This document shows positions 1 through 25,021 of a stretch of 32,000 nt of DNA, piece after piece. The DNA is taken from assembly GCA_004284765.1 (NCBI GenBank), contig NQJD01000002.1, forward strand, positions 90,001-122,000. Reading direction: 5' to 3'. Source of the stretch: Candidatus Electronema aureum. GTDB lineage: Bacteria; Desulfobacterota; Desulfobulbia; Desulfobulbales; Desulfobulbaceae. Under the pieces are notes generated by a model, which ran no database searches, had not been told where the DNA came from, and saw nothing but the letters and a program-made list of their open reading frames with translations. Numbering within the stretch: position 1 is the first letter of the stretch; every line of letters begins with the position of its first letter. Position numbers and translations under genes: made by a program.

Positions 1-443
1 TCATCTTCATGCTCAAGACGCTGCTTCACTTCCTCGGCAAGAAAGTTGACAATTCCAGCAAAATGCCGACGTTTTCCGTAATGCGCTTGCTGCGCCAGGC
101 TTTCCGCCAGCACCTTGAGCACATCGCTGTGCGGATCATCGGCGGAGCTGAAATCAATCAGGTAAAAAACTGCTGATTCTTTCCGGTGTTGTGCAGCCAA
201 GGTCAGCAGGCTGGTTGCAATCATGCCTTTAGCCGCTTCATCGTCTTGCCCGACAATCGCCAGATTGCTGCCGCTTTGCCGCCGGAACTGCGCCACAGTC
301 GCCTCTTTGATGGCAATCGGCTCGCCCAGCCAAGCGGAAAAACGTTTCAGCGGCGCGGTAGTTGGAGGATGCAGCAGGCGCGTTGCCTTCAAAAACAATC
401 TGGCTTTGCGGGAAAGCGAAATTTTGCTGCCGGGCCAGAGCAT
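1..443 (-). CDS. Third (degenerate) FtsK-like P-loop domain of the EssC-like ATPase. It lies in a frame offset by one nt from ORF 238..3006 and runs off the left window edge (partial).
   Basis: Minus-strand translation of 3..443 in the offset frame is stop-free to the edge. It reads ..PLKRFSAWLGEPIAIKEATVAQFRRQSGSNLAIVGQDDEAAKGMIATSLLTLAAQHRKESAVFYLIDFSSADDPHSDVLKVLAESL... This parallels the entry into the canonical domain (IPLGPVGANRVQFLELGKGTSHHALIAGKIGSGKSTLLHVLIVNLALTYSPDEVQFYLIDFKKG), but GQDDEAAKG replaces Walker A. It is absent from the ORF track because it has no stop inside the window. Confidence 0.6.
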   Translation of the reverse strand, partial: MLWPGSKISLSRKARLFLKATRLLHPPTTAPLKRFSAWLGEPIAIKEATVAQFRRQSGSNLAIVGQDDEAAKGMIATSLLTLAAQHRKESAVFYLIDFSSADDPHSDVLKVLAESLAQQAHYGKRRHFAGIVNFLAEEVKQRLEHED

Positions 444-3006
444 TAATCTTGTCCAAATATTGATCCCGCTCCTCATCAGGCAGCCATGCGACTTGAAACG
501 GATTGTTGCCTTCAACCAAGCCGTTTGCCGCATTATAGATCGCCTCGCCGGGCCGGGAAAGCAGCCGCGCAGCCGCGTTGTCATCGCTCAGAATCAGGCG
601 GGAATCCGTTTCGCTGCATTGCAAGGCAATTCTGACCGCCATTTGATCAATGGTGCTGCGAGCTAAGGTGTAGGTTCCGGCCAAAGTCTGCGAACCCAAG
701 ATGATATGAACGCCGAAGGCCCGGCCTTGACGCACCAAGCGGTCTAAAATTTGCGAGACCTTGGCAGCGACCGGATCATCTTCTGTGAAAAATTCCTGAA
801 ATTCATCCACAAGCAGGATGATGCGCGGCATGATCTGGCTGGTTTTCCGGCGGTAATTTTTCAAATCGGCAACTTCCGCCTTGCGGAAGAGGTCGCCGCG
901 CCGCTTCAGCAAGGCATCTAAATCTTGCAGAACGCTCAGGCCAAACTCGCGTTCGCTTTCAATGGCGATTACCCGCGCATGAGGCAGAGCATGTGCGGCA
1001 TAGGTTTTGAACTCCACGCCTTTCTTGAAGTCAATCAGGTAGAACTGCACTTCATCAGGGCTGTAGGTGAGCGCCAAATTGACGATGAGGACATGCAGTA
1101 GCGTTGATTTGCCGGAGCCTATTTTGCCAGCAATCAGCGCGTGATGGGATGTTCCTTTGCCCAGCTCAAGAAATTGCACCCGGTTTGCGCCCACCGGGCC
1201 AAGCGGAATGCGGATTTCCTCGGCAGTGCTGCCGCGCTGCCATGCTTCGGGGCTTAGTCCAGCCTTTTCCAAGATTTTTGCAAAGGGAACTTCCACCCGC
1301 ATTGCTGCCACTGCCGCTTTGCCGACCTGACTGATGATGGTGTTGAAATATTCCTGCGCTGGCGGTTCATCCAGCGAGAGCAGGCATTTAAAGTCACGTG
1401 CCCCCCATATTAGCTGATTTTCATTTTCATACGAATGGAAAACTCTAGTATGTCGTCCAATATTTCTGATATCAAATCTATGCGGCATATTTTTTTCACG
1501 ATCGCAAATAATGATGGTGTAGATGCCGCAGCGCGGACCATTTTGGAGAATGCTGATCAAACGGCGCACTGCATCTTCGCTGAAGTTGGCTGGAAAATCA
1601 TTGATGATCAGGAAACGGTACGGTTCCGTCAGCTCGCCTGCATAGGAGTTGAATTCCTCAATGGTTTTGTAAGTGTTGCGCAAATATTTCTGAATGACAT
1701 TCTCAATATGCTCAGTCAGCTCGCCAAGCCGCTGCTCGATATGTCGCGGCTCTGACCATGCTTTTGTTGTGACCAAAGATTCATCGTAATCCGCCAGATG
1801 CAGAAATGCGGCGGCATTTTGACCAAGACCGACAGGATCAATAAAGGTGAAGCGCAGTTTTCCCGGCGGAATTGATGCGGTCAGGCGCAGCAGGAGGGAT
1901 TGAAGCTGCTTGGCGATGAGGTTTCTTTCCTCTCCGTTTATCGAGAAGAGAATTCCTTGCTCAGAAGGAAAGGGCAGCAGAGCGGGCATGGAAAACTGAC
2001 AGTCTTTGATTCTACTTTTGTCTCCATTCCATCGTCCGGTGGTCAGTTCTCCAATGCGAATCATGTCGGGCAGCTTTGATGCGACATTCCAGCTTTGCCA
2101 AAATTCATCATCCCAGCGTGGAGATGAAGTGTCAACAGCTTGCTTGTATGCTGAAATCCTCCGATGCAGTTCTGCTAATTTTGCCTCAAATTCTTTTTGC
2201 GCAGTTTGCCTGATATTTTCGTAATTATCCTCAATCGTTTGAATCCGCTTCTCGTGTTTCTTCTCATTCTCCGCCATTCTCTCATTATAGAGCCGTTCTT
2301 CGTTTTTAATGAGCTGGTCAGCCTTCTGCACGCATTCGTTGTATATTTCTTTTGCCTCTATCGTTATTTGCAAAATATGAGAGTAGTATTTCTTTGGTTT
2401 CAGATAGAAGGTAAATATATAATTAAACTCAATAGATATTGATACAACAAAGGAGAATATTGCCGCTGATAATATCCATAATGTATCGTCGATTCTGTTT
2501 AAGTAGCAAAAAAATTTAGCTATAGTTCCTGTTATTATCCATAAAAAGAAAAATTCTATAAAAAATAGCGCTAATAGACTTTTGACAGTTTTTTTATCAT
2601 TATTAATACACGAGTTTATTTTTCCAGAAAAATCATCTGCTTGATTAAAATATGATTTAAGCGCATCTATAGCAGCTCTATTTTTCTGTACAAATGATTC
2701 TCCTGACGGATATATATTAAATATATCAAAAATATAAGATATTTTTTCTTTTGACTTGCTGCTGCATATAGATAGGTTGTTCATGTATGAAGATAATTCT
2801 CTATTTTTATTATTTATTGCTTGCGTATCTGAATCAAATTGAGATTTAATTTCTTTAGCCGTGTAATTGTAACTATCAGTTGCCTGCTGTTTTTCTTGGT
2901 TGTATCTCCTTTCAACGTCCAGTTTCACCTGATTGTTATCTTTAATAATTTCACCAAATTGTGTCATCAAAACTGTCTGCATTTCATCAAAATTTATCTC
3001 GCTCAT
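238..3006 (-). CDS. Membrane-anchored multi-domain FtsK/SpoIIIE-family ATPase (EssC/EccC-like, T7SS-type)
   Basis: 922-aa ORF with AGGAGG 6 nt upstream of the ATG at 3006. It has two hydrophobic helices (LALFFIEFFFLWIITGTIAKFF and WILSAAIFSFVVSISIEFNYIFTF) followed by a coiled-coil stretch. Next comes a degenerate FtsK-like domain with no Walker A (ILFSINGEERNLIAKQ) and FLIINDF at the Walker B position. A canonical domain follows, with Walker A GKIGSGKST (1102..1128) and Walker B LLVDEFQ (DE at 802..807). The last ~45 codons (238..~380, Arg/Cys/Gly-rich) look like out-of-frame read-through. Confidence 0.85.
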   Translation of the reverse strand: MSEINFDEMQTVLMTQFGEIIKDNNQVKLDVERRYNQEKQQATDSYNYTAKEIKSQFDSDTQAINNKNRELSSYMNNLSICSSKSKEKISYIFDIFNIYPSGESFVQKNRAAIDALKSYFNQADDFSGKINSCINNDKKTVKSLLALFFIEFFFLWIITGTIAKFFCYLNRIDDTLWILSAAIFSFVVSISIEFNYIFTFYLKPKKYYSHILQITIEAKEIYNECVQKADQLIKNEERLYNERMAENEKKHEKRIQTIEDNYENIRQTAQKEFEAKLAELHRRISAYKQAVDTSSPRWDDEFWQSWNVASKLPDMIRIGELTTGRWNGDKSRIKDCQFSMPALLPFPSEQGILFSINGEERNLIAKQLQSLLLRLTASIPPGKLRFTFIDPVGLGQNAAAFLHLADYDESLVTTKAWSEPRHIEQRLGELTEHIENVIQKYLRNTYKTIEEFNSYAGELTEPYRFLIINDFPANFSEDAVRRLISILQNGPRCGIYTIIICDREKNMPHRFDIRNIGRHTRVFHSYENENQLIWGARDFKCLLSLDEPPAQEYFNTIISQVGKAAVAAMRVEVPFAKILEKAGLSPEAWQRGSTAEEIRIPLGPVGANRVQFLELGKGTSHHALIAGKIGSGKSTLLHVLIVNLALTYSPDEVQFYLIDFKKGVEFKTYAAHALPHARVIAIESEREFGLSVLQDLDALLKRRGDLFRKAEVADLKNYRRKTSQIMPRIILLVDEFQEFFTEDDPVAAKVSQILDRLVRQGRAFGVHIILGSQTLAGTYTLARSTIDQMAVRIALQCSETDSRLILSDDNAAARLLSRPGEAIYNAANGLVEGNNPFQVAWLPDEERDQYLDKINALARQQNFAFPQSQIVFEGNAPAASSNYRAAETFFRLAGRADCHQRGDCGAVPAAKRQQSGDCRARR

Positions 3007-3026
3007 TTTAATCCTCCTGTTGGTAT

Positions 3027-3054
3027 GTAGGGGCGAAAAATTTTTCGCCCCTAC
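3027..3054. repeat. 28-nt perfect palindrome GTAGGGGCGAAAAATTTTTCGCCCCTAC between the 78-aa gene and the ATPase gene
   Basis: Read directly: 14-nt arms with no spacer. On the coding (minus) strand it ends 20 nt before the ATPase ATG and just upstream of its AGGAGG. It is not followed by a U-tract. Confidence 0.9.
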
Positions 3055-3063
3055 CGAGTTTGA

Positions 3064-3300
3064 TTAACGCGCATTCCTTCTTATCTGCTCAAAAACATGC
3101 AGAAGATTATCCATTTCTCTCTGCACCAGTCGCACTTGATCAAATAACGGCATCATCACATTTCCGGCAAACTCCTGGCTCACCGGGTCATCCCATTCTG
3201 TTTTCGCCATCTCCCAGCGATGACGCAGCTTTCCCTGCTCTTCATGAAATTCATCAAGCTGCTGCGAAAGCAAAACTACGCATTGATCAAGACTTTCCAT
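3064..3300 (-). CDS. 78-aa helical-hairpin protein with a central W-x-D turn (WXG100-like partner or immunity protein)
   Basis: Start chosen at MESLDQ (ATG 3298..3300), which overlaps the last 14 nt of the upstream 388-aa gene. The longer M at 3360 would sit deep inside that gene. The sequence is helix-biased with TEWDDPVSQEF near the middle, similar to QTWRDQEHQKF in the 90-aa protein. Confidence 0.55.
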   Translation of the reverse strand: MESLDQCVVLLSQQLDEFHEEQGKLRHRWEMAKTEWDDPVSQEFAGNVMMPLFDQVRLVQREMDNLLHVFEQIRRNAR

Positions 3301-4453
3301 GAAAAATAACACCTTCGTGGTAAAAGATGAAATCCTGCTTCCCCTCTGCCAGCTCTGCATTCGCCCTGCTGATTACTTCCGCAACGTTTCCAGAAAACCT
3401 GCCGTTGCTGACAAAATGGAACTCATGAATTTGACCTGTCCTGATCACATTTTTAATCCCTTCAACCTGCTCCTGAAACTCCTTCAGCCTGCCGCTGTAC
3501 GTCCCATGCAAGGCATGTTTGAAATCAACCCCGATCTCTTGCCCGTCAATCCACTGGCCATTCTCATAAAATCGTCGGCAAATCAGCAAATCAGCTTCGA
3601 CAGACCGCCTTTTTCCCGGCAGCTCTTTTGGGTTGAATTTGATTGAAAAATCAAGCCGGTCTGTCTCCGGTTGAATAAACAGCCGCTGCCCGCCGTTGCC
3701 TGCGTTCGAGCCGGAGCGGATCAGCGCAGCCGTGCCCAGCAGCTCATACAGAAAACCGGCAACCGATTTGTTGCGGTTGGCCAGCCGCGATTTCAGGATA
3801 GTTCCTGCCCGCATATCCCGCTGCGGCGAAAACCGCAGCAAACCCAGCGCGTCCGGCGTGACTGATAAAATCAAAGCAACAGTCTGCGACAGCTGCTGAA
3901 GATAGTCAGGGTAGCAGCTTGCGCTGGTGGGATTTTCAGCGGCAATCTGAAGCAGTAGTTCTTTGATCTCTTCTGCCGAAGACGGCTCCTGCGCAGGAAG
4001 AGCCGCCGCGCCACCGTGTTCCGCAGAAGAAAATCCGGCAAAACCAGCTCCGCTTTGCGCATTGACAGCACGGTACGCCTCAAGCTCCATGAACTTCCGC
4101 GCTAAGAACGACTCGGCCTTGGGAATTTCCTCGTGCAAAAAGTGCTGCAACCGGACGGCTTGTTGATGATACTGAGCGGCAGCCTCCTGCGCCTGCCGCC
4201 GCCAATGCAGAACAGCGTTCAGCTCTTCCTCGGCATGACGCAAGTGCTGCCTGTCATTGCGGGAGTTGTCCTGAGCGCGTTCCAGCTCCCGCCGCCCGTG
4301 CCGCTGCCGTTCATCAAGCCATGCTTCCGCCCGCTTGATTTCCCGGTTCACGCGGTCAAGCGTCTGCTGCGCCTCGCTGCGGAATGCCGCCAAACTGCTT
4401 TGCAGCTCCAGCAAAGCCTGAAACGACCGGACATTGGCCTGATTCGCGTTCAT
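3287..4453 (-). CDS. 388-aa modular protein and candidate secreted effector: an N-terminal WXG100-like helical domain, an Ala/Gly/Ser linker, and a ~210-aa C-terminal globular domain
   Basis: The start ATG overlaps the TAA of the upstream gene (TAATG). The N-terminal ~130 aa is heptad-like and helical, with AEAWLDERQ at residue 45. The linker is NAQSGAGFAGFSSAEHGGAAALPAQEPSSAEE. The C-terminal part carries acidic and basic residues spaced like a PD-(D/E)xK core (GFLYELL .. RLDFSI .. VEADLLI .. GVDFKH). This fold assignment is tentative. Confidence 0.7.
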   Translation of the reverse strand: MNANQANVRSFQALLELQSSLAAFRSEAQQTLDRVNREIKRAEAWLDERQRHGRRELERAQDNSRNDRQHLRHAEEELNAVLHWRRQAQEAAAQYHQQAVRLQHFLHEEIPKAESFLARKFMELEAYRAVNAQSGAGFAGFSSAEHGGAAALPAQEPSSAEEIKELLLQIAAENPTSASCYPDYLQQLSQTVALILSVTPDALGLLRFSPQRDMRAGTILKSRLANRNKSVAGFLYELLGTAALIRSGSNAGNGGQRLFIQPETDRLDFSIKFNPKELPGKRRSVEADLLICRRFYENGQWIDGQEIGVDFKHALHGTYSGRLKEFQEQVEGIKNVIRTGQIHEFHFVSNGRFSGNVAEVISRANAELAEGKQDFIFYHEGVIFHGKS

Positions 4454-4725
4454 TATCGCTGATCGATATAGTCGCGGGCGCGTTGAGCCTTTTTCTGAAG
4501 GAAGGGGATATGCTGCTCAGAAATTTGCAAAAACCGCTCAATTTGTTTGACCGTCTGCTGATATTCCTGCGCAAATTTCTGATGCTCCTGATCACGCCAC
4601 GTCTGGCCCAGCGCATTAAACTGCCCGTTGAGCTGCCCCATGCTCTGCCGGAGCTGCATATTGAACTGCTTCAGGTTATGGGAAAAACGGGCCAGCTCTT
4701 CGGGATCAACAATAGCTTGCGGCAT
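4453..4725 (-). CDS. 90-aa WXG100/ESAT-6-like helical hairpin protein (W-x-D variant)
   Basis: Start moved to MPQAIVDPEEL because AGGAGG lies 7 nt upstream of the ATG at 4723..4725. The product is 90 aa and predicted all-helical, with the Trp turn QTWRD at residues 41-45, the position of W-x-G in WXG100 proteins. It is first in an operon that ends with an FtsK-like ATPase. Confidence 0.65.
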   Translation of the reverse strand: MPQAIVDPEELARFSHNLKQFNMQLRQSMGQLNGQFNALGQTWRDQEHQKFAQEYQQTVKQIERFLQISEQHIPFLQKKAQRARDYIDQR

Positions 4726-4769
4726 GGTGAGACCTCCTGTTGTGGTTGCGGTGCCGGTTGTAATTGCCC

Positions 4770-4799
4770 AGCATAACGCGCTGAGAAGCAAGCTGTCAA
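4770..4799 (-). promoter_or_regulatory. Candidate sigma-70 promoter for the T7SS-like operon
   Basis: On the minus strand: TTGACA (4794..4799), 18 nt spacer, TATGCT (4770..4775). It lies about 45 nt upstream of the 90-aa gene start, between that start and the DUF1015 stop. Confidence 0.4.
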
Positions 4800-4816
4800 C
4801 CGGCGCAGATGGTAGC

Positions 4817-6187
4817 TTACAACAAGCCCACCGCCTCATCTAACTTCCGTATCAGCAGGCCGGTGAGGAGCTTCGGATAGAAGAAGGTGGATTTGTGCGG
4901 CATGATGTTGCCGCTATCCGCGACCTTCAGTACCTGTGCCACCTTGGTTGGGTTAAGCAAGAGGAGCAGCGGGGTGTGGCCGTCCTCCACCACGCTCTGC
5001 TTAACTGCCGCATCCAAAGCCTCGTCCGGGTCACTGAGATAGCTAATCAGCTTGCTCGTGGCGCATTGCTCATGGCTGAGACCAAGGCAATGGCTGATCA
5101 GCACCTCAGAGAGAAGCACCACATCTAAATCACGCAGCACTGCTGGTTTATCAGCCAGCAGCGGCCCAGAGATCAGTGCCGCATCCTGAACAACCAGCAA
5201 GAAGGCGCGGTTTTCCCCAGCATGATACACCCCAAAGGCAGGCAGGCCACTGTCTGCGGCAGCTTCGTCCATTCGGTTGAAGGTCTCTGCGATCAGGCTT
5301 TCCCGGCTGCTGTTGCGCACTTCCTCCACCAGCAGGTGCTGCCGCATTCTGTCGGCAAGCTGGTCTGCACTCATCGCGCCTGGCCAGCGCACAAGGCGGT
5401 GCGTGGGCAGAACAGACAGGCCGGGGTCTTCGCAACCGCAGAGGTACATCATGATGAAGTTGCTCGGATGATCGATAGGCAGAGCAGGGTTCGCAGCTAA
5501 AGCACGGCGGCGATACTCCAAGGCAGTGGTGTAACGGTGATGGCCGTCAGCTATATACACCGGCTTATCCACAAAGAACCGCTGCACCTTAGCAATAGCT
5601 GCTGCATCTGTCACCCGCCAGAGGGTGTGCGTGTTGGCATTACCGTCTGTGACCTGAAGGAAAGCTTTGCTCTCCTGCACCTGCTCTAAGGTGCGGATCA
5701 CCTCTTGCTGCGGGTCAGAGTAGATGGAGAATATCTTGCTGAACTGCGCACTACAGGTCTCCATCAGCTTGAGACGGTCGCCAATGACACCGGCAAAGGT
5801 CTTCTCGTGCGGGCGGACAATGCCCTCGCTGAACTCCGCCAGCCCGACCAGACAGACTATGCCTTTGCGGGTCAGCCGTCTGCCGCCGGGGATAGTGTAG
5901 TCGGTGGCGTACAGGTAGATGGCGGGCTGCGCATCGCGGATCAGCACGGCTTCATCCTGCCAAGTAGCAAAGCGGTCGCGGGCTTGCAGATAGCGGCCAT
6001 CGTCCTCAGTCTCACCCTGCGAGGTGTTGCGCAGGTCAAGGTTGATCATCGAGTAGGGGTTCTTCTGGCGCAGCTTCTCGCCGTCTCTGGCAGAAATGAT
6101 GTCGTAGGGAGGAGTGATCACATCCTCCAGCCGGGCAATTTTCTCTTGGTTGTAGCGTACAGCGCGGAACGGGGCAACAGCAGCCAT
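4817..6187 (-). CDS. DUF1015 family protein
   Basis: The 456-aa N-terminus MAAVAPFRAVRYNQEKIARLEDVITPPYDIIS matches the characteristic DUF1015 opening (PF.A.RY ... PPYDVI). Confidence 0.85.
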   Translation of the reverse strand: MAAVAPFRAVRYNQEKIARLEDVITPPYDIISARDGEKLRQKNPYSMINLDLRNTSQGETEDDGRYLQARDRFATWQDEAVLIRDAQPAIYLYATDYTIPGGRRLTRKGIVCLVGLAEFSEGIVRPHEKTFAGVIGDRLKLMETCSAQFSKIFSIYSDPQQEVIRTLEQVQESKAFLQVTDGNANTHTLWRVTDAAAIAKVQRFFVDKPVYIADGHHRYTTALEYRRRALAANPALPIDHPSNFIMMYLCGCEDPGLSVLPTHRLVRWPGAMSADQLADRMRQHLLVEEVRNSSRESLIAETFNRMDEAAADSGLPAFGVYHAGENRAFLLVVQDAALISGPLLADKPAVLRDLDVVLLSEVLISHCLGLSHEQCATSKLISYLSDPDEALDAAVKQSVVEDGHTPLLLLLNPTKVAQVLKVADSGNIMPHKSTFFYPKLLTGLLIRKLDEAVGLL

Positions 6188-7174: not shown

Positions 7175-7353
7175 GCTCTCCTTAGTTAAATAGGGTGCGT
7201 TCTGGCTACCTCATCAGGTAGGCACGTTCGCGTCATCGACAGTTTTTCGTCTGCGAACAGGGAGATAGAAAAACTTTACATTTTCCGGTGAACCCTGTAT
7301 CCTGTACGCTCCTGCGTAGAAGCAGACGTTTGTGCAACACCATCTTATAAAAC

Positions 7354-7914
7354 ATGATTCAGATAGGGGCAACAATGTATTTTTTCCCATTATCCCTTCG
7401 GCAACCGGCAACGGCAGCCTTGTTTAGTCTGCTGATCCTTTTGAACGCCTCTGCCTCCTTTGCCAAGGACGAGGCACCGATCAATATCGAAGCCGACCGC
7501 ATGATTTCCCAAGAGAACAAGAACACGGTCGTTTTCATCGGGAACGTCGAAGCGAGTCAAGGCAAAGTCACCATCCGCGCTGATGAAATGACTGTGCAAT
7601 ACGAGGAAAGTGCATCGAACAAAGGTGGTAAAGCAGCGGACAAACCTGAAAAGGGCAAGTCCAGCAAGGTGAAAAGTCTGATCTGTATCGGCAAAGTGGA
7701 AGTCACTCAAGGAGACTGGCTCGGCACCGGCGAAAAGATGGAGTATGTTGCCGCCGAGCGCAAGGTGGTTCTCAGCGGCAATGCCAAAGCCTTGCAAGAT
7801 AAGAACATGGTTTTCGGCAAAACTATCACCTATTATTTAGACGAAAAACGCTCTGTGGTTGAGAACGGCAGCGGAGAGACAACAGGACGGGTGAAGGCGG
7901 TCATTCAGCAATAG
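7354..7914 (+). CDS. lptA: LPS export periplasmic protein LptA (OstA-like)
   Basis: It has a signal-peptide-like N-terminus (ALFSLLILLNASASFA) and the OstA pattern INIEADRM..FIGNVEASQG..VVLSGNAKALQDKNMVFGKTITYYL. It sits directly upstream of lptB. The start could be the internal M at 7375. Confidence 0.8.
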   Translation: MIQIGATMYFFPLSLRQPATAALFSLLILLNASASFAKDEAPINIEADRMISQENKNTVVFIGNVEASQGKVTIRADEMTVQYEESASNKGGKAADKPEKGKSSKVKSLICIGKVEVTQGDWLGTGEKMEYVAAERKVVLSGNAKALQDKNMVFGKTITYYLDEKRSVVENGSGETTGRVKAVIQQ

Positions 7915-7924
7915 TAGCAGCGGC

Positions 7925-8659
7925 ATGATGATGGAACCCTCAATCTTGGAGACCAGAAATCTGGTGAAGGAATATCGCACCCGGCGGGTGGTTGATCAAG
8001 TCAGCCTTCAGGTGCGAAGCGGCTCCATTGTCGGTCTGCTGGGACCAAACGGAGCAGGTAAGACCACCACCTTTTACTCGATTGTTGGCTTTATTCGGCC
8101 CAGCTCTGGTTCCGTTCTGTTAGACGGTGAGGAAATCGGCGACATGCCCATTCATCAGCGGGCCGCCAAAGGCATCACCTATTTAGCGCAAGAACCGTCG
8201 GTCTTCAAGAAGCTGACCGTGGAGGAGAATGTCCGCATCGTCCTTGAGCCGCTCGGTCTAAGCAGCAACGAAATCCGCCAGCGTATCCGCGAGCTGATGG
8301 CCGAGCTGAAGATCGAACATCTATCCCAGAATAAAGGCCACGCGTTATCTGGCGGCGAACGGCGACGGGTGGAGATCATGCGGGCCTTGGCAGTGCGGCC
8401 TCGCTTCATTCTTCTCGACGAGCCGTTTGCCGGGGTTGATCCGCTCTCTGTGGCGGATTTACAGCAGATCATCCGTGTTCTCAAAGCCAAGGGTCTCGGC
8501 ATTCTTATTTCCGATCACAACGTGCGCGAGACCCTTCAGGTTTGCGACTTTGCGTACATCATGAACGAAGGCCAGATTCTCACCAGCGGCGCAGCGGGCG
8601 ACATCATCCGCAGCGAGCTGGCCAAGAAAATGTACCTCGGCGAAAACTTTACTCTGTAG
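7925..8659 (+). CDS. lptB: LPS export ABC transporter ATP-binding protein LptB
   Basis: Walker A GPNGAGKTT, ABC signature LSGGERRR and Walker B ILLDEP are present. It occupies the conserved position between lptA and rpoN. Confidence 0.9.
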   Translation: MMMEPSILETRNLVKEYRTRRVVDQVSLQVRSGSIVGLLGPNGAGKTTTFYSIVGFIRPSSGSVLLDGEEIGDMPIHQRAAKGITYLAQEPSVFKKLTVEENVRIVLEPLGLSSNEIRQRIRELMAELKIEHLSQNKGHALSGGERRRVEIMRALAVRPRFILLDEPFAGVDPLSVADLQQIIRVLKAKGLGILISDHNVRETLQVCDFAYIMNEGQILTSGAAGDIIRSELAKKMYLGENFTL

Positions 8660-8675
8660 AATCTGGTCGCCACGC

Positions 8676-10115
8676 ATGAGCATTGAACTCCGCCAGCAGA
8701 TGAAGCTGGCCCAGAAGCTGCTCATGACGCAGCAGCTCCGGCAGGCGATCAAGCTGCTCCAGCTCAACCGGCTGGAGTTGGTTGGCGCACTTCAGACTGA
8801 GATGGAGCAAAATCCCGTACTGGAAGAAGCCGTGAGCGAGGATGTGGACACGGACATCTCGCTGATTGAGGAAACAGGTGAAGGCAGCGAAGCTCCGATC
8901 ACAGCGCAAGTGGCCGGTGATAATCCCGTCGCCGTGGCTGAGGTGAATTGGGAAGACTACGCCAATAACTTTGATGCAGATTTTTCCTTTGCTCACGAAA
9001 CTCCTGCCGCTGATGCGCCTTCCCGCCTTGATTTTCTTGCCGCCACACCGGGTCTGCTTGCCTTTCTCGCGTGGCAGCTCACCCATCTGAAGCTGACCGA
9101 GTTAGATTTAGACATTGCTCGCTTTATTCTCGGCAATTTAGACGGCCACGGCTTTTTAGACGCAGACCTTGCTGATATCTGTCAGCACGTTAGCTGCACC
9201 GAAGAAGAGGCCGAGGGAATGCTGCGGTTGGTGCAGAGCCTTGATCCTCCGGGCGTAGCAGCGCGGAGCGTACAAGAATCGCTGCTCCTTCAGTTAGAGC
9301 GGCAAGGTATGGAGGATAAGCTTCCCTATCGCGTTGTCGCTGATTTCTTCACCGAGTTGGAAAGCCACAACTTTGCCGAAATCGCTCGCCGCACCGGTAC
9401 TCCTCTTCGAGAAGTACAAAAAACCGCAGGCATCATCGCTGGGCTGGTGCCTTATCCGGGCAACCAGTACAGCAACGAGCAGATACGACATATCGTGCCA
9501 GATGTGTATGTATTTCAATTTGACGATGAATTCGTGGTGCAGCTGAACAGCGATGAGCTACCACAACTTCAGCTTTCTGCCTCATATCATGATGCAATGA
9601 TTAAGCAGCTGCCCCAAGACTCAAAAGAATATCTCCAAGAAAAAAAGCGCAACGCGCAGATGCTGATCAGTGCCCTTCATTATCGGCAGAACACCATCAG
9701 CAAGGTGATGGAGAGCATCGTCCGTCATCAGCGGGAGTTTTTTGAAAAGGGACCGAGCTTTCTCCGACCATTAGTTCTCAGTGATGTTGCCCAAGATATC
9801 GGTGTGCATGAATCGACGGTCAGCCGGGTAACATCAAACAAATACGTCGAAACCCCGCAGGGCATTTATGAGTTGAAATATTTCTTCTCCACCGCAGCAG
9901 CAGAAGGGGAGAATGGCGATGAATTGACTTCGGTTTCGATCAAGCAGCGCATTGGCCAGCTCGTGCGCCAAGAAAATCCGGCCAAACCTCTCAGTGACAG
10001 CAAATTGACTGAGTTGCTGGAGCAGGAGGGTATCAAACTGGCGAGGCGTACCGTTGCCAAATACCGTGAGCAGATGAAAATTATGCCGGTTCAGCACCGT
10101 CGCAGTAAGGGCTGA
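8676..10115 (+). CDS. rpoN: RNA polymerase sigma-54 factor
   Basis: The N-terminal Gln/Leu-rich region (LRQQMKLAQKLLMTQQLRQAIKLLQL) and the C-terminal RpoN box (ARRTVAKYREQM) are both present. Confidence 0.95.
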   Translation: MSIELRQQMKLAQKLLMTQQLRQAIKLLQLNRLELVGALQTEMEQNPVLEEAVSEDVDTDISLIEETGEGSEAPITAQVAGDNPVAVAEVNWEDYANNFDADFSFAHETPAADAPSRLDFLAATPGLLAFLAWQLTHLKLTELDLDIARFILGNLDGHGFLDADLADICQHVSCTEEEAEGMLRLVQSLDPPGVAARSVQESLLLQLERQGMEDKLPYRVVADFFTELESHNFAEIARRTGTPLREVQKTAGIIAGLVPYPGNQYSNEQIRHIVPDVYVFQFDDEFVVQLNSDELPQLQLSASYHDAMIKQLPQDSKEYLQEKKRNAQMLISALHYRQNTISKVMESIVRHQREFFEKGPSFLRPLVLSDVAQDIGVHESTVSRVTSNKYVETPQGIYELKYFFSTAAAEGENGDELTSVSIKQRIGQLVRQENPAKPLSDSKLTELLEQEGIKLARRTVAKYREQMKIMPVQHRRSKG

Positions 10116-19519: not shown

Positions 19520-19975
19520 ATGAAATACGAAACAGTGCATAGCCTCAGCGAGGAAGATTTTAAACGATCAACAGGAGTTCAGCGTTCGACCTTCGCCAAG
19601 ATGCTTGAGGTTGTCGAGCAAGGGCTGCGCAATTTTGGCAGACCGCCAAAATTGGGCCGGGCCGATCAGCTCCTGCTGACCTTGATGTATTGGCTCGAAT
19701 ATCGGACTGAATTTCACATTGGCCTTGCCTATGGCATCAGCGAGTCGGCGGTGTGCCGGACGATTAAAAAGATTGAAAACGCGCTCATTAAGTCGGAGCA
19801 ATTTCACCTACCCAATAAAAAAGCACTTCAGTCCGACAGCATAAAATTTGAAATTACCCTCGTTGATGCCACAGAACAGCCGATTGAACGCCCAAAAAAA
19901 AACAGCGGCAGCATTACAGCGGCAAAAAAAAGTGCCATACTCAGAAAGCGCAGATAATTTCAATGGGTAAACCCC
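19520..19975 (+). pseudogene. IS5/Harbinger-like (HTH_Tnp_4 plus DDE_Tnp_4) transposase fragment, frameshifted and 3'-truncated
   Basis: The HTH region is LLLTLMYWLEYRTEFHIGLAYGISESAVCRTIKKI, followed by the first catalytic segment LVDATEQPIERPKK. After the A9 run (19894..19902) the expected continuation QRQHYSGKKKCHTQKAQII appears only in another frame. The remainder of the DDE domain is absent. Confidence 0.7.
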
Positions 19976-20033
19976 CGGCTTTGCCGGTGGATACTTACTC
20001 AAAAGTAGGTAGCAACTTGGGTTATAATACAAG

Positions 20034-20054
20034 GAAAAATTTTTCGCCCCTACC
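20034..20054 (+). repeat. Half-copy (21 nt exact) of the 3027..3054 palindrome in the leader of the 158-aa membrane protein gene
   Basis: GAAAAATTTTTCGCCCCTACC is identical at 3035..3055 and 20034..20054. In gene-sense orientation the CCCCTAC end lies exactly 20 nt upstream of the start codon at both loci. Confidence 0.9.
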
Positions 20055-20073
20055 TGCCAAAGAGGACAACCCA

Positions 20074-20550
20074 ATGAATATTGACATGCTGGTAAAACAT
20101 CTTCAGAACCCCTTTGCCTTGGCCGGAATCGCCTTCCTGCTTGCGGCGGCGTTCTGGTTTTTTCTGAGCAAAGGACGGAAAAGCAACAAGGCTGCATCAG
20201 GGCGGCTGGACGCAACGCAGGTGATTTATCTTCTCAGCCTGCTGGCTATGCTTGTCCTTGCCGTGCTGATGTGGAACGACCGTGCCATTTCCATGACGCT
20301 GCTCGGCAGTCTGCTGGGCAGCGTCGTCAGCGGCCTGCCGCTTTTGAAGCCTGCGAAGGAAGACAAGTCTGTTCTCAGCACGGTTGGCGAGCAAAGCCCC
20401 TCAGTCCGCAGCGGCGGCAAGGTGACAATCAGCTACGGCGGCGCGGTGTCCGGCGGGAAAAAGGCAGGTGCTGGGCAGGCAGTCACGCAGGGCGGACAAA
20501 GCCCGGCGGTCGAGGCGAAGAAAGATGTGGAAATCAAGTATGAGAAATAA
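20074..20550 (+). CDS. 158-aa predicted membrane protein with a C-terminal tail carrying two QSP..V.I.Y motifs
   Basis: The start is set at MNIDML (ATG 20074) because the upstream 37 codons run into the IS remnant. There are three hydrophobic helices (FALAGIAFLLAAAFWFFL, VIYLLSLLAMLVLAVLMW, ISMTLLGSLLGSVVSGLPLL). The tail contains EQSPSVRSGGKVTISYGG and GGQSPAVEAKKDVEIKYEK. Confidence 0.6.
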   Translation: MNIDMLVKHLQNPFALAGIAFLLAAAFWFFLSKGRKSNKAASGRLDATQVIYLLSLLAMLVLAVLMWNDRAISMTLLGSLLGSVVSGLPLLKPAKEDKSVLSTVGEQSPSVRSGGKVTISYGGAVSGGKKAGAGQAVTQGGQSPAVEAKKDVEIKYEK

Positions 20551-20636
20551 GGCGGCTGGCGTGACGAGGCAGTCGCCGTCTATGAGAAGGTATATTTTTT
20601 CTATTTCCTCATAGGCCGCGCCTGTCTTTTAATAGG

Positions 20637-20684
20637 AAAAATAGATGAGGAAATAGACGCGGCCTATCTGCTCATCTATTTTTT
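20637..20684. terminator. Candidate bidirectional Rho-independent terminator
   Basis: A 13-bp perfect stem AAAAATAGATGAG (20637..20649) / CTCATCTATTTTT (20671..20683) with a 21-nt partly self-paired loop. An A-run lies on one side and a T-run on the other. Confidence 0.55.
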
Positions 20685-20730
20685 GGATTAAAAGGTATAA
20701 AAAATATACTTTCCGGCAGGAGGGGGCGAT

Positions 20731-22408
20731 ATGCAGATGACAACGGGCAATCAGTCGCCGGTGATTGAGGCGGGCGGCAATGTCACGGTCAATTACGGCC
20801 TCGACGAGGAGCGCGTCAAAGCCATGCTGGAGCGGCAGCAGGAGGAGCTGTTCAGGAAGCTGCGCGAGTCCGGCTTTGCGGCGGATGACGGCGAACGCCG
20901 CCTGCTGGAGCAGCAGTTGCAGGCGGTCTCGGCGAAACTGGCCGACATCGAGCGGAGCTACGAGGAGGAGCTGGCGCGGCCAACTTCCCGAAGCCCAGAT
21001 TGAGAACGCGCAAGCCAATTTGCGGCAGGGCGACAAGGACGCGGCCAAATCAGTCTTTCACGGGGTGCTTGACAAGGAAGGCGCGTCAGTCGCGCTGGCC
21101 GCGTATCAGCTTGGGCAGATGGCGGAGGGCGATTTGAATTACGCCGAGGCCATGCGCATGTACAAAAAGGCGGTTGTGCTGGAGGAGGACAAGCCGGAGT
21201 ATCTGCTTGCCGCTGGGAAAATGGCCCGCAAACTTGCGGAGTTCAAGCAGGCGCAGGAATGGCTGGAGCATCTGCGGGAGATCAGGGAGGCGGAGGGAGA
21301 TGGTGCTAACCTCGGCAACGTTCTTAACGAGTTAGCTTTAGTTTATAAAGATCAATTTCAGTTGGCAAAGGCAGATTTTCTGCATCGACGTGCTCTTGAT
21401 GTCAGAGAAAAGATATTTGGCGAAGAACATCAGGATACAGCAGAGAGTTTAAACGATCTTGCCTTTTTATGTAGAGAGCAGTGCAGATATGAGGAGGCTG
21501 AGTCGTTATTTAAACGTGCCGTTGATACCAGAGAGAAAATATTTGGTAAAGATCACCCTGATGTAGCAGAGAGCTTGAATAATCTGGCTGGACTGTATCG
21601 AACGCAGGCGCGTTACACGGAAGCAGAGTTGCTGTATCAACGTTCTTTGGAAATTAAAGAGAAAACGTTAGTACCTCATCATCCTTCCATAGCGACAAGT
21701 TTGAACAATATAGCTATGTTCTATAAAAACAAAGGAAAATATTTTGATGCAGAATTACTCTACCAGCGTGCTCTTTCCATAAAAGAAAAATCAATAGGTG
21801 AAGCCCATCCCTCTTTCGCGATCACATTAAATAATCTTGTAAATCTTTATAGAGATCAGGGTAGATATATCGAAGCTGAACCGTTATATTATCGTGCTCT
21901 TAACGTTAGAGAGAAAATATTTGGAAGAGACCATCAGCATATAGCTGGCAGCTACGAGGGCATCGCCACATTATACAAAAATCAAGGAAAGTGCGCTGAA
22001 GCAGAACATCTTTACCAGAAAGCCATTGATATAAAAGAAAGACTTCTTGGCAAAGATCATCTTTCTCTTGCTGTAACAATATGCAACCTTGCTGATCTTT
22101 ATCAAAATCAAGAAATGTATCAAGAGGCTGAAAAGTTAAATAGCCGTGCTCTTTATATTCGAGAAGAAATCCTTGGAAAGGAGCATCCCTCTGTGGCAAA
22201 CAGTCTAAACAATTTCGCTAATCTCTATAGATTACAAAAAAGATACGCGGAAGCAGAACCACTGTATCAACGTGCCCTATCCATTATGAGGGAAAAATTT
22301 CCCGGCGGCCATCCAAAGGTTGATCGCTATCAGAAAGACTACGACGAGCTGAAACAGAAGATGGCGGAGCAGCAAGCCGCCGCCACTCAAGAGAAAAATC
22401 ATGTTTAA
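20731..22408 (+). CDS. TPR protein with eight kinesin-light-chain-type 42-aa repeats and a ~85-aa N-terminal domain. The reading frame is interrupted near 20970..20985.
   Basis: GGAGGGGG lies upstream of the ATG at 20731. The N-terminal frame (MQMTTGNQSPVIEAGGNVTVNYGLDEERVKAML...YEEELAR) stops at 21003. The TPR frame (..QLPEAQIENAQANLRQGDKDAAKSVF..) is the +1 frame and is open to 22408. The repeats follow the pattern AESLNNLAGLYRTQARYTEAELLYQRSLEIKEKTLVPHHPSI, eight times. Confidence 0.7.
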
Positions 22409-22649
22409 TCTGCAATTGCATGTCCGCCCGCAAACTGAGCAGCGGCTGCGGGCAATCTTGGCCCGTGCGCAGGATAACGCAATGTGCAAGAAAATAAAAA
22501 AGAGAACAATATCAATATTCCCTAGTCGGTGCTGAAGTCGGAGCAGTAGAGGAACGGGTGGCAGATATTTGATGACCTGCCATGCTTTATAACTGTTTTC
22601 CCTCAAAATGCTATTCATCCTAAGGAGCTAAAAATTGTTTGCGGCTACC

Positions 22650-23450
22650 TTATGCAAGTGGGTCAGTTAGCTTATCCGTAAGGGCAGAAATCTCCCGATC
22701 TATGTTCTTTATATCCGCTACTATCGGTTTTGCTGTTTCGGGAGATTTTTCGAGAGCCAGCCTTAATATACTCATCCAATTAAGGTTGTTTCTTGCTCTT
22801 GCCGCTTCGATTTGATCAATAGGATGCGGATATTCTTTCTCATTATCTTGCGGCCATTGAATGAATACAGAGAATTTTTCAAAAACTTTATCATATTTTT
22901 TTTGAATTTCTTTGTAACCAGCAAGCCAATCCTCTTTCGTTAAACCGAGGAGGTGAACACCTATGCGCGCGCCATTTTTAAAAATATTTGAACGTAGGAA
23001 TCCCTCCTCCTGAAACAAAAATTTTTTATGCAATTTTACAACTGCATCGTTTCCTTCGATTACTTCGCAATTTAATTTTTCTACCCCTAATGAGTTAAAA
23101 ATAAAATTAATCAACGAATACTCAAGAGCTGACCCAAGCCCTCCCCATACGTTTTCCGTTACATAATACCCCCAATCCGCTTTTTTATGAAGGCGATCAA
23201 TTGCATTGACACTTATAACGCCTAATGGCTTATGTACTTCGTCTAAAACAGCAAAAACAATTTTTCTGTCGTCTTGCTTGAGTCGGTTTATCCAACCTAA
23301 ATGTTCATTTGCTTCGATAATGTGGTCTGTGTACATCCATTTTCGTACATTTTCCTCGTTTCTAATTTCTCTGACCTTCATCTGTGATTCTGTATCGAGA
23401 AAGGTCAAGAGAACAAGATTGATTACCTTTGGATTTACTGAATTCATCAT
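22650..23450 (-). CDS. GNAT-family N-acetyltransferase (PseH-like N-terminal domain) with a ~85-aa C-terminal extension
   Basis: AAGGAGA lies upstream of ATGATG at 23450. The layout LLTFLDTESQMKVREIRNEENVRKWMYT..EHLGWINRL..VFAVL..LGVISVNAID....ADWGYYV..LGVEKLNCEVIEGNDAVVKLHKKFLFQEEG resembles PseH-type GNATs. The gene is about 35% GC, clearly below the surrounding sequence. Confidence 0.7.
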   Translation of the reverse strand: MMNSVNPKVINLVLLTFLDTESQMKVREIRNEENVRKWMYTDHIIEANEHLGWINRLKQDDRKIVFAVLDEVHKPLGVISVNAIDRLHKKADWGYYVTENVWGGLGSALEYSLINFIFNSLGVEKLNCEVIEGNDAVVKLHKKFLFQEEGFLRSNIFKNGARIGVHLLGLTKEDWLAGYKEIQKKYDKVFEKFSVFIQWPQDNEKEYPHPIDQIEAARARNNLNWMSILRLALEKSPETAKPIVADIKNIDREISALTDKLTDPLA

Positions 23451-23564
23451 AAGTCTCCTTTCTGTACTCATTTTGTAAAATTTAAATGCGTAATTTCTAG
23501 CCTAAGATGCATTGACATTGATACAACAATTCCCCGCTTTATGGTAATAGCTACCCATGAGTGA

Positions 23565-23924
23565 TCAATGAAACAAAATACAATCGTTGTAGTGATTAAT
23601 AAATCTCCAAACATATGCAGTTAAATTTTCAATGCTTCTCGAAAACGACAATGTCTTCCTGATTAATACCGACACTCTTTGCCTGAATGTTAAATTAATC
23701 CTTTCGATATGACTTTTTTTTCCGCTTCCTTTACTGACAACGCTGTGTCTTTCTGCAGGAAATACTTTTCCGTAAGAGGTCAAGCCGTCTGTGAAAAATA
23801 TTCCGTTCTTTTTGCAGTCTTCAGAAAGTGACTTCCACAGGGCAGCAGCTTCGGTATCGTCTCTTTTTCCGACAAAAGTCCACATCTCGTCGGCTTCTAT
23901 AAAAATTTTTCCATCTTTAGACAT
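23565..23924 (-). pseudogene. IS1-family transposase (InsB-like) C-terminal fragment
   Basis: ADEMWTFVGK, FFTDGLTSYGKVFPAERH and IERINLTFRQRVSVLIRKTLSFSRSIENL match the conserved IS1 InsB C-terminal half. The N-terminal half and InsA are missing, and an internal segment after VGK appears to be deleted. Confidence 0.75.
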
Positions 23925-23969
23925 GCAGAAAGCCTGTCTTCTGGCTTCATCCCGTTTTTTTTAATAGGT

Positions 23970-25021
23970 GAATTCAACTTGTAAGTGCAACTTTTGTCTG
24001 GTTGTAAAAAAAGTGAGTTGTGGTAGTATGATGGCTCATTTCTTACCGCCAAGCAAGAGGAGCACGGATGAAAAACTACACACAAGTCACCGAAGCAGAA
24101 CGTAATCAAATTTACGCGTTAAAGCAAGCAGGGCATCAGAAATCAGCGATAGCCTTGCAGCTTGGCCGACACAGATCAACTATCGGTCGAGAATTGCAGC
24201 GTAATTGCGGTGAACGCGGCTGGCCCAAGCAGGCACAACAACTGTCTATTCAACGCCGCCAAGAAAAGGCAGAGCGGAGAATTTCTGAAGAAATATGGCC
24301 TATTGTCAATGATCTTCTCCGCGAAGATTGGAGTCCTGAACAAATCAGCGGCTGGCTATCCGCAACCAAAAATCTTCAGGTCAGTCATGAACGAATCTAT
24401 CAACATGTTGCCCATGACAAGCAGCACGGAGGAACGTTACATCTCCATCTACGAAAGAAGAAAACGTTATGGCAGCACTGACCGCCGGGGCAAGATTAAA
24501 AACCGGGTCTCGATAGATCATCGCCCCAGCATCGTTGAAGAACGTTCTCGGATTGGTGATTGGGAGGTGGATACGGTGATCGGTCGTCGGGGAGGAGCTG
24601 TTCTTGTCACCTTGGCAGAACGGAAGACGCGAGTTATCGCTCTTGCCCCGAATAAACGGGCAGATAGCGTCAATCAGGCACTTGTCCAAGCCCTTCTTCC
24701 CTGCCAAGACCAAGTTCATACCCTAACCTGCGACAACGGCAAGGAATTTGCCTTGCATCAGGAGTTCGCAAGCACTCTTCAGGCAGACTGCTTCTTCGCG
24801 CATCCGTATCAGGCTTGGCAACGCGCGGCTCAACGAAAATACGAACGGACTTATACGGCAATACCTCCCAAAAGGAGCGAGCTTTGACACGCTGGACACG
24901 CAGGATGTCAAAGCTATTATGGAAAAGCTCAACAACAGGCCTCGAAAATCTCTTGGATTTAAAACACCAAAAGAGCTATTTTTGGGAGACTACTTAACGG
25001 TTGCACTTGGAACTTGAATTC
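23970..25021 (+). mobile_element. IS30-family insertion sequence (about 1.05 kb) with recognisable terminal inverted repeats and an inactivated transposase
   Basis: IRL is GAATTCAACTTGTAAGTGCAAC (23970..23991). The reverse complement of IRR (25000..25021) is GAATTCAAGTTCCAAGTGCAAC, giving 19/22 identity. No clear target-site duplication was seen. Confidence 0.85.
24068..25017 (+). pseudogene. IS30-family transposase with at least two frameshifts
   Basis: Three consecutive frames together give a full IS30 transposase. The first frame holds the HTH region (ERNQIYALKQAGHQKSAIALQLGRHRSTIGRELQRN). The second holds IGDWEVDTVIG and TCDNGKEF. The third holds NENTNGLIRQYLPKG..MEKLNNRPRKSLGFKTP. The breaks are near 24455..24480 and 24820..24840. 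Confidence 0.85.

Follow-up and report, generated by a model that had tools for sequence, protein, structure and literature searches.

This analysis concerns four co-oriented genes of Candidatus Electronema aureum, a cable bacterium belonging to the Desulfobulbaceae. They lie on the minus strand at positions 1-4839, downstream of a DUF1015 gene, of a 32 000 nt stretch of contig NQJD01000002.1 (positions 90 001 to 122 000 of the forward strand), referred to here as the window. The genes are a copy of a compact module of Gram-negative bacteria that combines a WXG100 protein with an EssC-like ATPase. In order, they encode a WXG100 protein (WXG-A), a 388-aa protein with a helical hairpin and a nuclease-like domain (effN, referred to here as the carrier), a second small protein (WXG-B), and an ATPase that is closest to EccC/EssC, and not to FtsK or TcpA, by both sequence and fold. 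The homology to type VII secretion systems (T7SSs) proposed in a first-pass annotation, namely a WXG100 protein and an EccC/EssC-like multi-domain ATPase in a host that makes lipopolysaccharide (LPS), is sound, and from it we infer secretion. It is moderately probable that the module is a self-contained inner-membrane exporter of an effector-carrying helical-bundle complex. The genes and the parts of their products are as follows.

4453..4725, minus: WXG-A, 90 aa, WXG100 protein of the HP0062 type (Pfam PF06013; AGGAGG ribosome-binding site)
3287..4453, minus: carrier/effector effN, 388 aa, with an N-terminal helical hairpin, a disordered linker and a C-terminal nuclease-like domain
4055-4447, minus: long helical hairpin of the carrier, aa 3-133, with helices 3-63 and 68-133 (AlphaFold2, AF2)
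3290-3976, minus: PD-(D/E)xK nuclease-like domain of the carrier, aa 160-388 (AF2 and Foldseek)
3743-3745, 3590-3592, 3524-3526 and 3518-3520, minus: carrier motif residues E237, D288, D310 and K312, respectively
3064..3300, minus: WXG-B, 78 aa, conserved family with a central W-x-D-x5-F motif
238..3006, minus: EccC/EssC-like ATPase as now read, 922 aa (Pfam FtsK_SpoIIIE, E 4.6e-31)
2767-2991, minus: N-terminal helix of the ATPase
2521-2577, minus: first transmembrane (TM) helix of the ATPase, residues 144-162 (hydropathy)
2425-2481, minus: second TM helix of the ATPase, residues 176-194 (hydropathy)
2122-2397, minus: stalk helix of the ATPase, ~90 residues
1303-2061, minus: degenerate domain a of the ATPase
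514-1215, minus: active domain b of the ATPase, with Walker A GKIGSGKST at 1102-1128 and Walker B at 790-816
~372 to the stop at 238, minus: out-of-frame tail of the ATPase
3..359, minus, other frame: domain c of the ATPase, with the degenerate P-loop IVGQDDEAAKG; runs off the left edge and has weak EssC/EccCb matches

Proteins of the module and their affinities

In a search of PDB sequences the ATPase matched EccC (4NH0) at 7e-39, and its best partial matches among the NCBIfam models were EccCa, EssC and EccCb (1e-33 to 1e-28), with FtsK at 4e-10. The scores are below the equivalog cut-offs (116.5 against 509 bits for TIGR03924, 97.7 against 347 for TIGR03925 and 107 against 778 for TIGR03928), and these EccC/EssC matches align a single domain. 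By Foldseek, Thermomonospora curvata EccC (4NH0) was matched at 1e-24 over ~915 columns, with all three domains in tandem, and EssC at 1e-16, whereas FtsK and TcpA were each matched in a single domain (E 4e-9 to about 5e-9). The first-pass annotation described a membrane-anchored ATPase with three P-loops. The three FtsK-like alpha/beta domains are present in the AF2 model of an intact ortholog, as is the membrane hairpin in the sequence, but the Walker A and B motifs are confined to the middle domain; exactly one canonical Walker A was found in 118 of 120 ATPase homologs. With respect to EccC, sequence favours domain b as D1, while alignment of the full-length folds pairs a-b-c with D1-D2-D3, and DUF-domain structures match too. 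There was no match to an FHA domain in Pfam, the N-terminus being instead a long helix. PADLOC matches to ZorA (E 0.005-0.6) fall in the coiled-coil region and were discounted as compositional. Phage records yielded single-domain FtsK-like proteins only, apart from one unannotated metagenomic contig.

The active domain shares the RecA-like FtsK motor fold with FtsK, SpoIIIE, TraB and TcpA-type proteins, the Pfam family is FtsK_SpoIIIE, and FtsK and TcpA do match. It is nevertheless very improbable that this is a DNA-translocating ATPase of the FtsK/TraB type, or a conjugative coupling ATPase to which the small helical proteins are accessories. The known proteins of this kind are single motor domains, their matches are ~15 orders of magnitude weaker than that of EccC, and tandem triple domains with two degenerate sites are typical of EccC/EssC. 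No FtsK gamma domain was detected in the ATPase (the FtsK motor region alone aligns). The context is not that of conjugation or segregation, as no relaxase, type IV secretion system (T4SS) or replication gene was found in the window or its flanks, and none recurs in the 86 related loci described below.

Codons 1-205 of the ATPase gene (2392-3006) differ from the remainder. Their GC content at third positions is 0.24-0.28, compared with 0.5-0.7 in the rest of the gene and its neighbours, and the ortholog is alike; synonymous divergence (dS) between the two orthologs is 0.06 in this part and 0.35 downstream. Together, these values suggest that the coiled-coil/TM module was recently swapped in from a low-GC donor. 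A search of a large protein collection with the AT-rich N-terminal 305 residues gave no match, and no donor was found by local BLAST, which returned only N-terminal modules that were ~20 % identical.

WXG-A was confirmed as a WXG100-type protein. It scores 34.1 bits with the Pfam WXG100 model (PF06013), for which the gathering score is 27.3, and 28.0 with the NCBIfam subfamily model TIGR03930, which is under the cut-off of 44.85. The best match of the family profile is Helicobacter pylori HP0062 (3FX7/2GTS, E 1e-11), followed by EsxB and EsxA. The turn motif, T-W-R-D-Q-E-H-x-K-F, contains W-R-D and not W-x-G, and W43 and D45 are invariant across the family. As HP0062, a WXG100-like protein of solved structure, has the same turn (PMC3397514), this is a known subfamily variant. 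Homologs were found in 65 of the 87 sources searched, which are the 86 related loci and the window. An upstream start giving a 128-aa protein was discarded, as the ribosome-binding site and the lengths of the orthologs both point to the 90-aa start.

WXG-B is probably a second WXG100-like hairpin partner. Homologs were found in 67 of the 87 sources, nearly always directly upstream of the ATPase gene, and W34 and D36 are invariant. There is no Pfam match, and the WXG-B profile found only coiled-coil noise among PDB sequences. Compared with EsxA, the profile gave E 0.64, and a cross-hit to a true WXG100 protein gave E 8.5e-5.

The N-terminus of the carrier had been considered similar to the 90-aa protein. 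It does form a helical hairpin, of twice the WXG100 length, and matches neither the Pfam WXG100 family nor Pfam LXG; its profile also found only coiled-coil noise among PDB sequences. The AF2 model of the carrier has a mean predicted local distance difference test score of 71, with 77-92 in the C-terminal core. The top Foldseek matches of the C-terminal domain were the PD-(D/E)xK nucleases Can2, BstEII, AF1548 (probability 1.0, root-mean-square deviation 3.0 A), Card1, Mus81 and EcoO109I, and E237, D288 and the D310-x-K312 pair are invariant in 12 carrier homologs.

Conserved linkage, carrier repertoire and known relatives

More than 1600 relatives of the ATPase were found in the protein collection, and one scan detected this ATPase type in the genomes of at least 477 species, with Planctomycetota and Chloroflexota foremost. 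The gene order WXG-A, hairpin protein, WXG-B, ATPase is kept in ~65 of the 86 related loci, wherever enough upstream sequence exists. These span Planctomycetota and Chloroflexota, which account for most loci, as well as Poribacteria, Cytophagia and KSB3. Of the 79 assessable loci, 69 have the TM hairpin and the ATPase in one protein, and in 4 more the hairpin is the product of a separate adjacent gene (92 % together). No other gene family is found in more than 7 of the 86 loci, in agreement with the earlier suggestion of a minimal module. In a probable Chloroflexota contig (L006, 11241-18550), where the membrane module is a separate gene, a second and more canonical T7SS-like set lies ~5 kb away and consists of a WXG100 protein, YukD, an EspG-like protein and a 1356-aa multi-domain FtsK ATPase.

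The hairpin family comprises 465 cluster representatives, and the hairpin is N-terminal in all of them. Among the best 150 representatives, 35 are approximately hairpin-sized (230 aa or less) and 103 are at least 260 aa. The C-termini are polymorphic, and 97 such regions fell into 35 unrelated clusters. These include DUF6782 metallopeptidases, ParB-like, Endonuclea_NS_2 and Tox-GHH domains and SsdA-type deaminases (SsdA_C), and Tox-GHH, Endonuclea_NS_2 and SsdA_C are recognised interbacterial toxin domains. GNAT, VanY and Imm33-like domains were also found. VanY acts on peptidoglycan, and its presence on carriers implies an extracytoplasmic target. Imm33-like domains, which have an immunity-protein fold and are not toxins, end the carriers in several planctomycete loci (L047, L034, L056, L016 and L040, from Phycisphaerae and relatives), and fit poorly with simple toxin delivery.

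An Anaerolineae locus (L008, 1830-4165) has two tandem hairpin carriers, with metallopeptidase-like and DUF2380 C-termini. A clear WXG-B gene follows the second carrier, and an overlapping 128-aa open reading frame (ORF) that matches the WXG-B profile lies between the two; the arrangement resembles a duplicated effector unit. Stand-alone homologs of the nuclease-like domain of the carrier, with a different N-terminus, were found in L089 and L090. Their neighbours are uncharacterised proteins of 347-926 aa and DEAD/Helicase_C proteins of at least 1336 aa, and these loci are possibly a separate defence-type system that uses the same nuclease family.

The suggestion that the system was undescribed did not survive a literature search, as modules of this type have already been reported as mobile or minimal T7SSs. 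Zhang et al. in 2012 (PMC3482391, Table 1 note 6) recorded a solo WXG protein with a YueA/EssC-like ATPase in several Gram-negative phyla, and named it mobile T7SS. For HP0062, an ESAT-6-like character, a WRD turn and a neighbouring FtsK/SpoIIIE gene were reported (PMC3397514), and HP0062/HP0066 was termed a minimal T7SS by Uchiyama in 2016 (PMC4978471). Beside CoCoNuT systems, Bell et al. in 2024 (PMC11090510) found an EssC homolog with D2 alone active and an N-terminal coiled coil, together with a pair of WXG100 proteins, a D-ExK nuclease fused to a coiled coil, and a gene for a DNA mimic; those ATPases have no TM helices. In the module of the 2012 and 2024 reports there are three FtsK/HerA ATPase domains, of which the middle one alone is active (PMC3482391, PMC11090510).

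The window module shares with this published type the WXG100 protein with a W-R-D turn, the three-domain ATPase with a single active site, the long N-terminal coiled coil, a second small protein that is probably WXG-like, the hairpin fused to a D-ExK nuclease-like domain and the stand-alone island location. It differs in the two-TM hairpin of its ATPase, as the ATPases of the CoCoNuT-linked and plasmid copies are soluble. It also has no flanking VWA/TerY-P genes and no DMP12-like DNA-mimic gene after the nuclease, its Desulfobulbaceae host is outside the 2012 list, and its ATPase gene is frameshifted.

Structurally the ATPase is matched best by an EccC, and the two TM helices and the WXG100 partner are further features in common with T7SSa (ESX) systems. 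Differences are the absence of EccB, EccD, EccE, MycP and EspG, the LPS outer membrane of the host, the single active site, and scores far under the EccC equivalog cut-offs. With T7SSb the module shares a helical N-terminal carrier, variable C-terminal toxins and two small helical partner genes, which is the logic of an LXG protein with two Lap proteins (PMC10801868, PMC9600955), and the EssC D2-D3 structures are those matched at E 1e-16. Unlike in T7SSb, FHA domains are missing from the ATPase, the carrier does not match Pfam LXG, and there is no EssA, EssB, EsaA or EsaB; in most cases no immunity gene is present, and a toxin domain is lacking from many carriers. The carrier family is also organised like the LXG polymorphic toxins, in that the helical N-terminal part is conserved and the toxin domains at the C-terminus are interchangeable.

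The interrupted ATPase gene and the genomic setting

The first-pass annotation treated the ATPase as one intact gene, which it is not. Further features of the locus, including the site of the interruption, are listed below.

371..372, minus: junction of a 41-nt (38+3) deletion in the linker between ATPase domains b and c (DNA alignment to L001)
3027-3054, minus: perfect palindrome with 14-bp arms (RNA hairpin), GTAGGGGCGAAAAA/TTTTTCGCCCCTAC, between WXG-B and the ATPase
4770..4799, minus: sigma-70-like promoter candidate, TTGACA-18-TATGCT, 10/12 matches, between the DUF1015 stop and WXG-A
4821..4957, minus: right-hand copy of a 137-nt direct repeat, at the 3' end of DUF1015 (repeat search on L002 and alignment)

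Relative to the orthologous locus L001, which is 90 % identical and encodes an intact ATPase of 1151 aa, the deletion and the resulting frameshift place domain c in a separate reading frame, and the ORF for the remainder stops at 238. A second assembly of the same organism (L002) shows the same split, with products of 922 aa and 226 aa. In L002, domain c stops ~107 codons past the left edge of the window; in total, the intact ortholog is ~160 codons longer. A programmed frameshift and a homopolymer error were both rejected, because 41 nt are deleted relative to the ortholog.

All of the cassette genes, including domain c, have ratios of nonsynonymous to synonymous substitution (dN/dS) of 0.05-0.18 between the two orthologs, which indicates purifying selection. 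The lowest value is that of WXG-A (0.05), and that of domain c (0.18) is no higher than in the rest of the cassette. Either the deletion is therefore recent or the pieces of the ATPase still cooperate. In ESX-1, EccC is naturally split into EccCa1 and EccCb1 and is functional, and the split in the window recalls this arrangement. The module here may have a working two-piece ATPase of this kind, or it may be newly inactivated.

That the cassette in this genome is a recently inactivated remnant, in which the loss of the third, substrate-recognising domain prevents export or activation, is a serious possibility though short of probable, and it would fit either functional reading of the family as a whole. 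The deletion recurs in the second assembly and, not being a homopolymer slip, is unlikely to reflect a sequencing error or a programmed frameshift. The host could also presumably lose the cassette, which is an inserted island bracketed by repeats. Set against these points are the intact state of every other ORF, the open frame, possible starts and dN/dS of domain c, and the functional split in ESX-1; we note also that the two assemblies may come from one enrichment culture and are then not fully independent. In any case, the frameshift makes the window copy a poor experimental starting point, and the ortholog is intact.

The four genes are translationally coupled, and their junctions, as first described, were exact in every position. 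The WXG-A stop and carrier start overlap in TAATG (4451-4455), the end of the carrier gene overlaps the beginning of WXG-B by 14 nt (3287-3300), and a 57-nt gap (3007-3063) containing the palindrome separates WXG-B from the ATPase gene. AGGAGG ribosome-binding sites precede the starts of both WXG-A (4725) and the ATPase (3006). The palindrome occurs once in the window and has a folding energy of -23.8 kcal/mol (z = -5.3), and none of 200 shuffles was equally stable. Its stem is kept in L001 with a single loop change, no T-run follows it, and the hairpin had no match in Rfam. Its possible roles are attenuation, or a stabilisation that tunes the ratio of small proteins to ATPase. The promoter candidate is the sole match within 2900-5000 and its position fits, but it is weak evidence because shuffled sequences also yield about one match.

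A second copy of the 137-nt repeat, 86 % identical, lies ~420-560 nt past the left edge of the window. The pair, which is a duplication of the DUF1015 3' end, brackets the 5.4-kb cassette and looks like an insertion scar (positions were converted from L002, where the copies are at 1925-2061 and 7305-7441, spaced by 5380 nt). In L001 the second copy is absent and the downstream neighbour is different. Comparison of window positions 3064-6187 with L001 gave dS of 0.19-0.35 for the cassette and 0.84 for DUF1015, and this fits with related lineages having recently exchanged the cassette. Variable flanks across the loci and plasmid-borne relatives are further indications of mobility. No integrase was identified at the cassette.

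The first-pass annotation expected the locus to continue past the left edge. The remaining ATPase codons are found there and are followed by toxin-antitoxin-type genes, and the locus does not reach far beyond the edge. These genes (L002, 7272-10100), directly past the ATPase, comprise a faint FitA-like ribbon-helix-helix match, a PIN domain and pEK499_p136; a second direct repeat of 76 nt is found at 8609-8684 and 9422-9497, and the region looks like an accessory-gene patch. To the left, then, there is no relaxase or T4SS gene, and this stands with the WXG100 fold of WXG-A and the EccC/EssC affinity of the ATPase in agreement with the original assignment. The first-pass annotation had seen no EssA/EssB/EsaA or EccB/D/E/MycP-like gene in 1-4800, and none was found across the whole window or beside the cassette in the orthologous loci; the same is true of EsaB, and EspG is absent as well. 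There are no VWA, PP2C or kinase genes in the window, which makes this the stand-alone form.

The premise of an LPS-making host holds, since lptA (98.2 against 71.7 bits) and lptB (350.7 against 240 bits) are above the NCBIfam cut-offs, and rpoN and argB, which also adjoin, pass their curated cut-offs. Elsewhere in the window, a second foreign-looking patch (19520-24887) has a GC content of 0.37-0.46, compared with ~0.55 around it. It includes transposase fragments (HTH_Tnp_4 at 19520-19957 and a weak rve match at 24162-24887), a 547-aa TPR protein (20765-22408) and a GNAT acetyltransferase (22650-23471).

Proposed export and defence functions of the module

The export reading introduced above draws on the WXG100 membership of WXG-A, EccC/EssC as the closest relatives of the ATPase, the single Walker A, the conserved TM hairpin and gene order, the polymorphic carrier C-termini, and purifying selection. 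It draws also on a Helicobacter plasmid copy, in which a carrier ending in an HNH domain is followed by an immunity-type gene of the SMI1/KNR4 (SUKH) family, and the same reading is given in the literature. In the proposed mechanism, WXG-A, the carrier hairpin and WXG-B would assemble in the cytoplasm into a helical bundle, and the degenerate C-terminal domain of the ATPase would recognise it. The TM helices of EccC line the ESX-5 pore, and a hexamer of the ATPase would provide twelve TM helices as the only channel. The middle domain, by turning over ATP, would then drive the bundle through the inner membrane together with the C-terminal effector. The bundle may be akin to EsxA/EsxB, to LXG-Lap complexes, or to a toxin with two WXG100 partners, and there are precedents for tripartite toxin-partner complexes (PMC10801868, 10.64898/2026.08.24.746431).

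The principal alternative is that the module acts inside the producing cell in defence or abortive infection, with the membrane-tethered ATPase sensing or remodelling phage or plasmid entry and then freeing or activating the hairpin-tethered nuclease. This would account for the context of some relatives. A Caballeronia plasmid copy lies between VWA genes and adjoins CARF, PP2C and Ser/Thr kinase genes, a TerY-P/CoCoNuT context (see also PMC11090510); its ATPase has no predicted TM helix, and that of the Helicobacter plasmid has a single weak hydrophobic segment. However, the TM hairpin is kept in 92 % of the clade loci. Likewise, no immunity gene adjoins the nuclease-type carrier in the window, in L001 or in L087, and Imm33-like domains are fused to some carriers, but other carriers have VanY or classical interbacterial toxin domains, and immunity candidates are found in some relatives (the SMI1/KNR4 gene on the Helicobacter plasmid and a 186-aa gene in L004). 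The ATPase domain type is shared with the PADLOC proteins SspH (E 2e-30) and mad8 (2e-23), but these matches span the P-loop domain only, so that membership of those systems is not established. The large DEAD/Helicase_C proteins next to the stand-alone nuclease homologs and the toxin-antitoxin-type genes of the left flank are also in keeping with defence. Against it are the closeness of the ATPase to the protein-translocating EccC/EssC, and the WXG100 partner, which is a hallmark of T7SS export. On balance, we consider a defence function unlikely.

For export, the following observations count on the other side. WXG-B is linked only weakly to WXG100 (hhalign pairs the turn motifs at a probability of 14 % and E 0.002), and the Foldseek nuclease matches of the carrier are marginal (E 1.5e-3 to 0.15). 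Carriers without any C-terminal domain make up about a third of those sampled in the protein library and the majority in the 86 genome loci, and the nuclease-type carriers have no adjoining immunity gene in the three loci named. Across the 86 loci there is no conserved outer-membrane component or other membrane partner, some relatives are soluble ATPases inside TerY-P/CoCoNuT defence loci, and the ATPase of the window copy is frameshifted. In the literature searched, no Gram-negative member had been put to an experimental test, and no member of the module type had been shown to export.

A stronger form of the export reading would make the membrane-anchored clade a true self-sufficient exporter of diderm LPS bacteria, in which one EccC-like polypeptide is motor, receptor and channel and delivers a three-protein bundle with interchangeable effectors to the periplasm. 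We regard this as tentative and rather doubtful. In cable bacteria the periplasm is shared along the filament.

What the analysis adds to the published notes is that the membrane hairpin is kept by most of the clade and that the middle gene encodes a carrier with a polymorphic effector repertoire. The window copy itself provides a new host lineage for a module type known from computational work. Recent reviews still assign T7SSs to Actinomycetota and Bacillota, and despite this a four-gene relative is widespread in Gram-negative phyla. If the module does export, no known T7SS-type machine would be simpler, and it would offer a tractable system for studying channel formation by an EccC-like hexamer and the recognition of helical-bundle substrates. 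If the self-sufficient exporter proves true, it would be a distinct and previously unvalidated Gram-negative secretion pathway.

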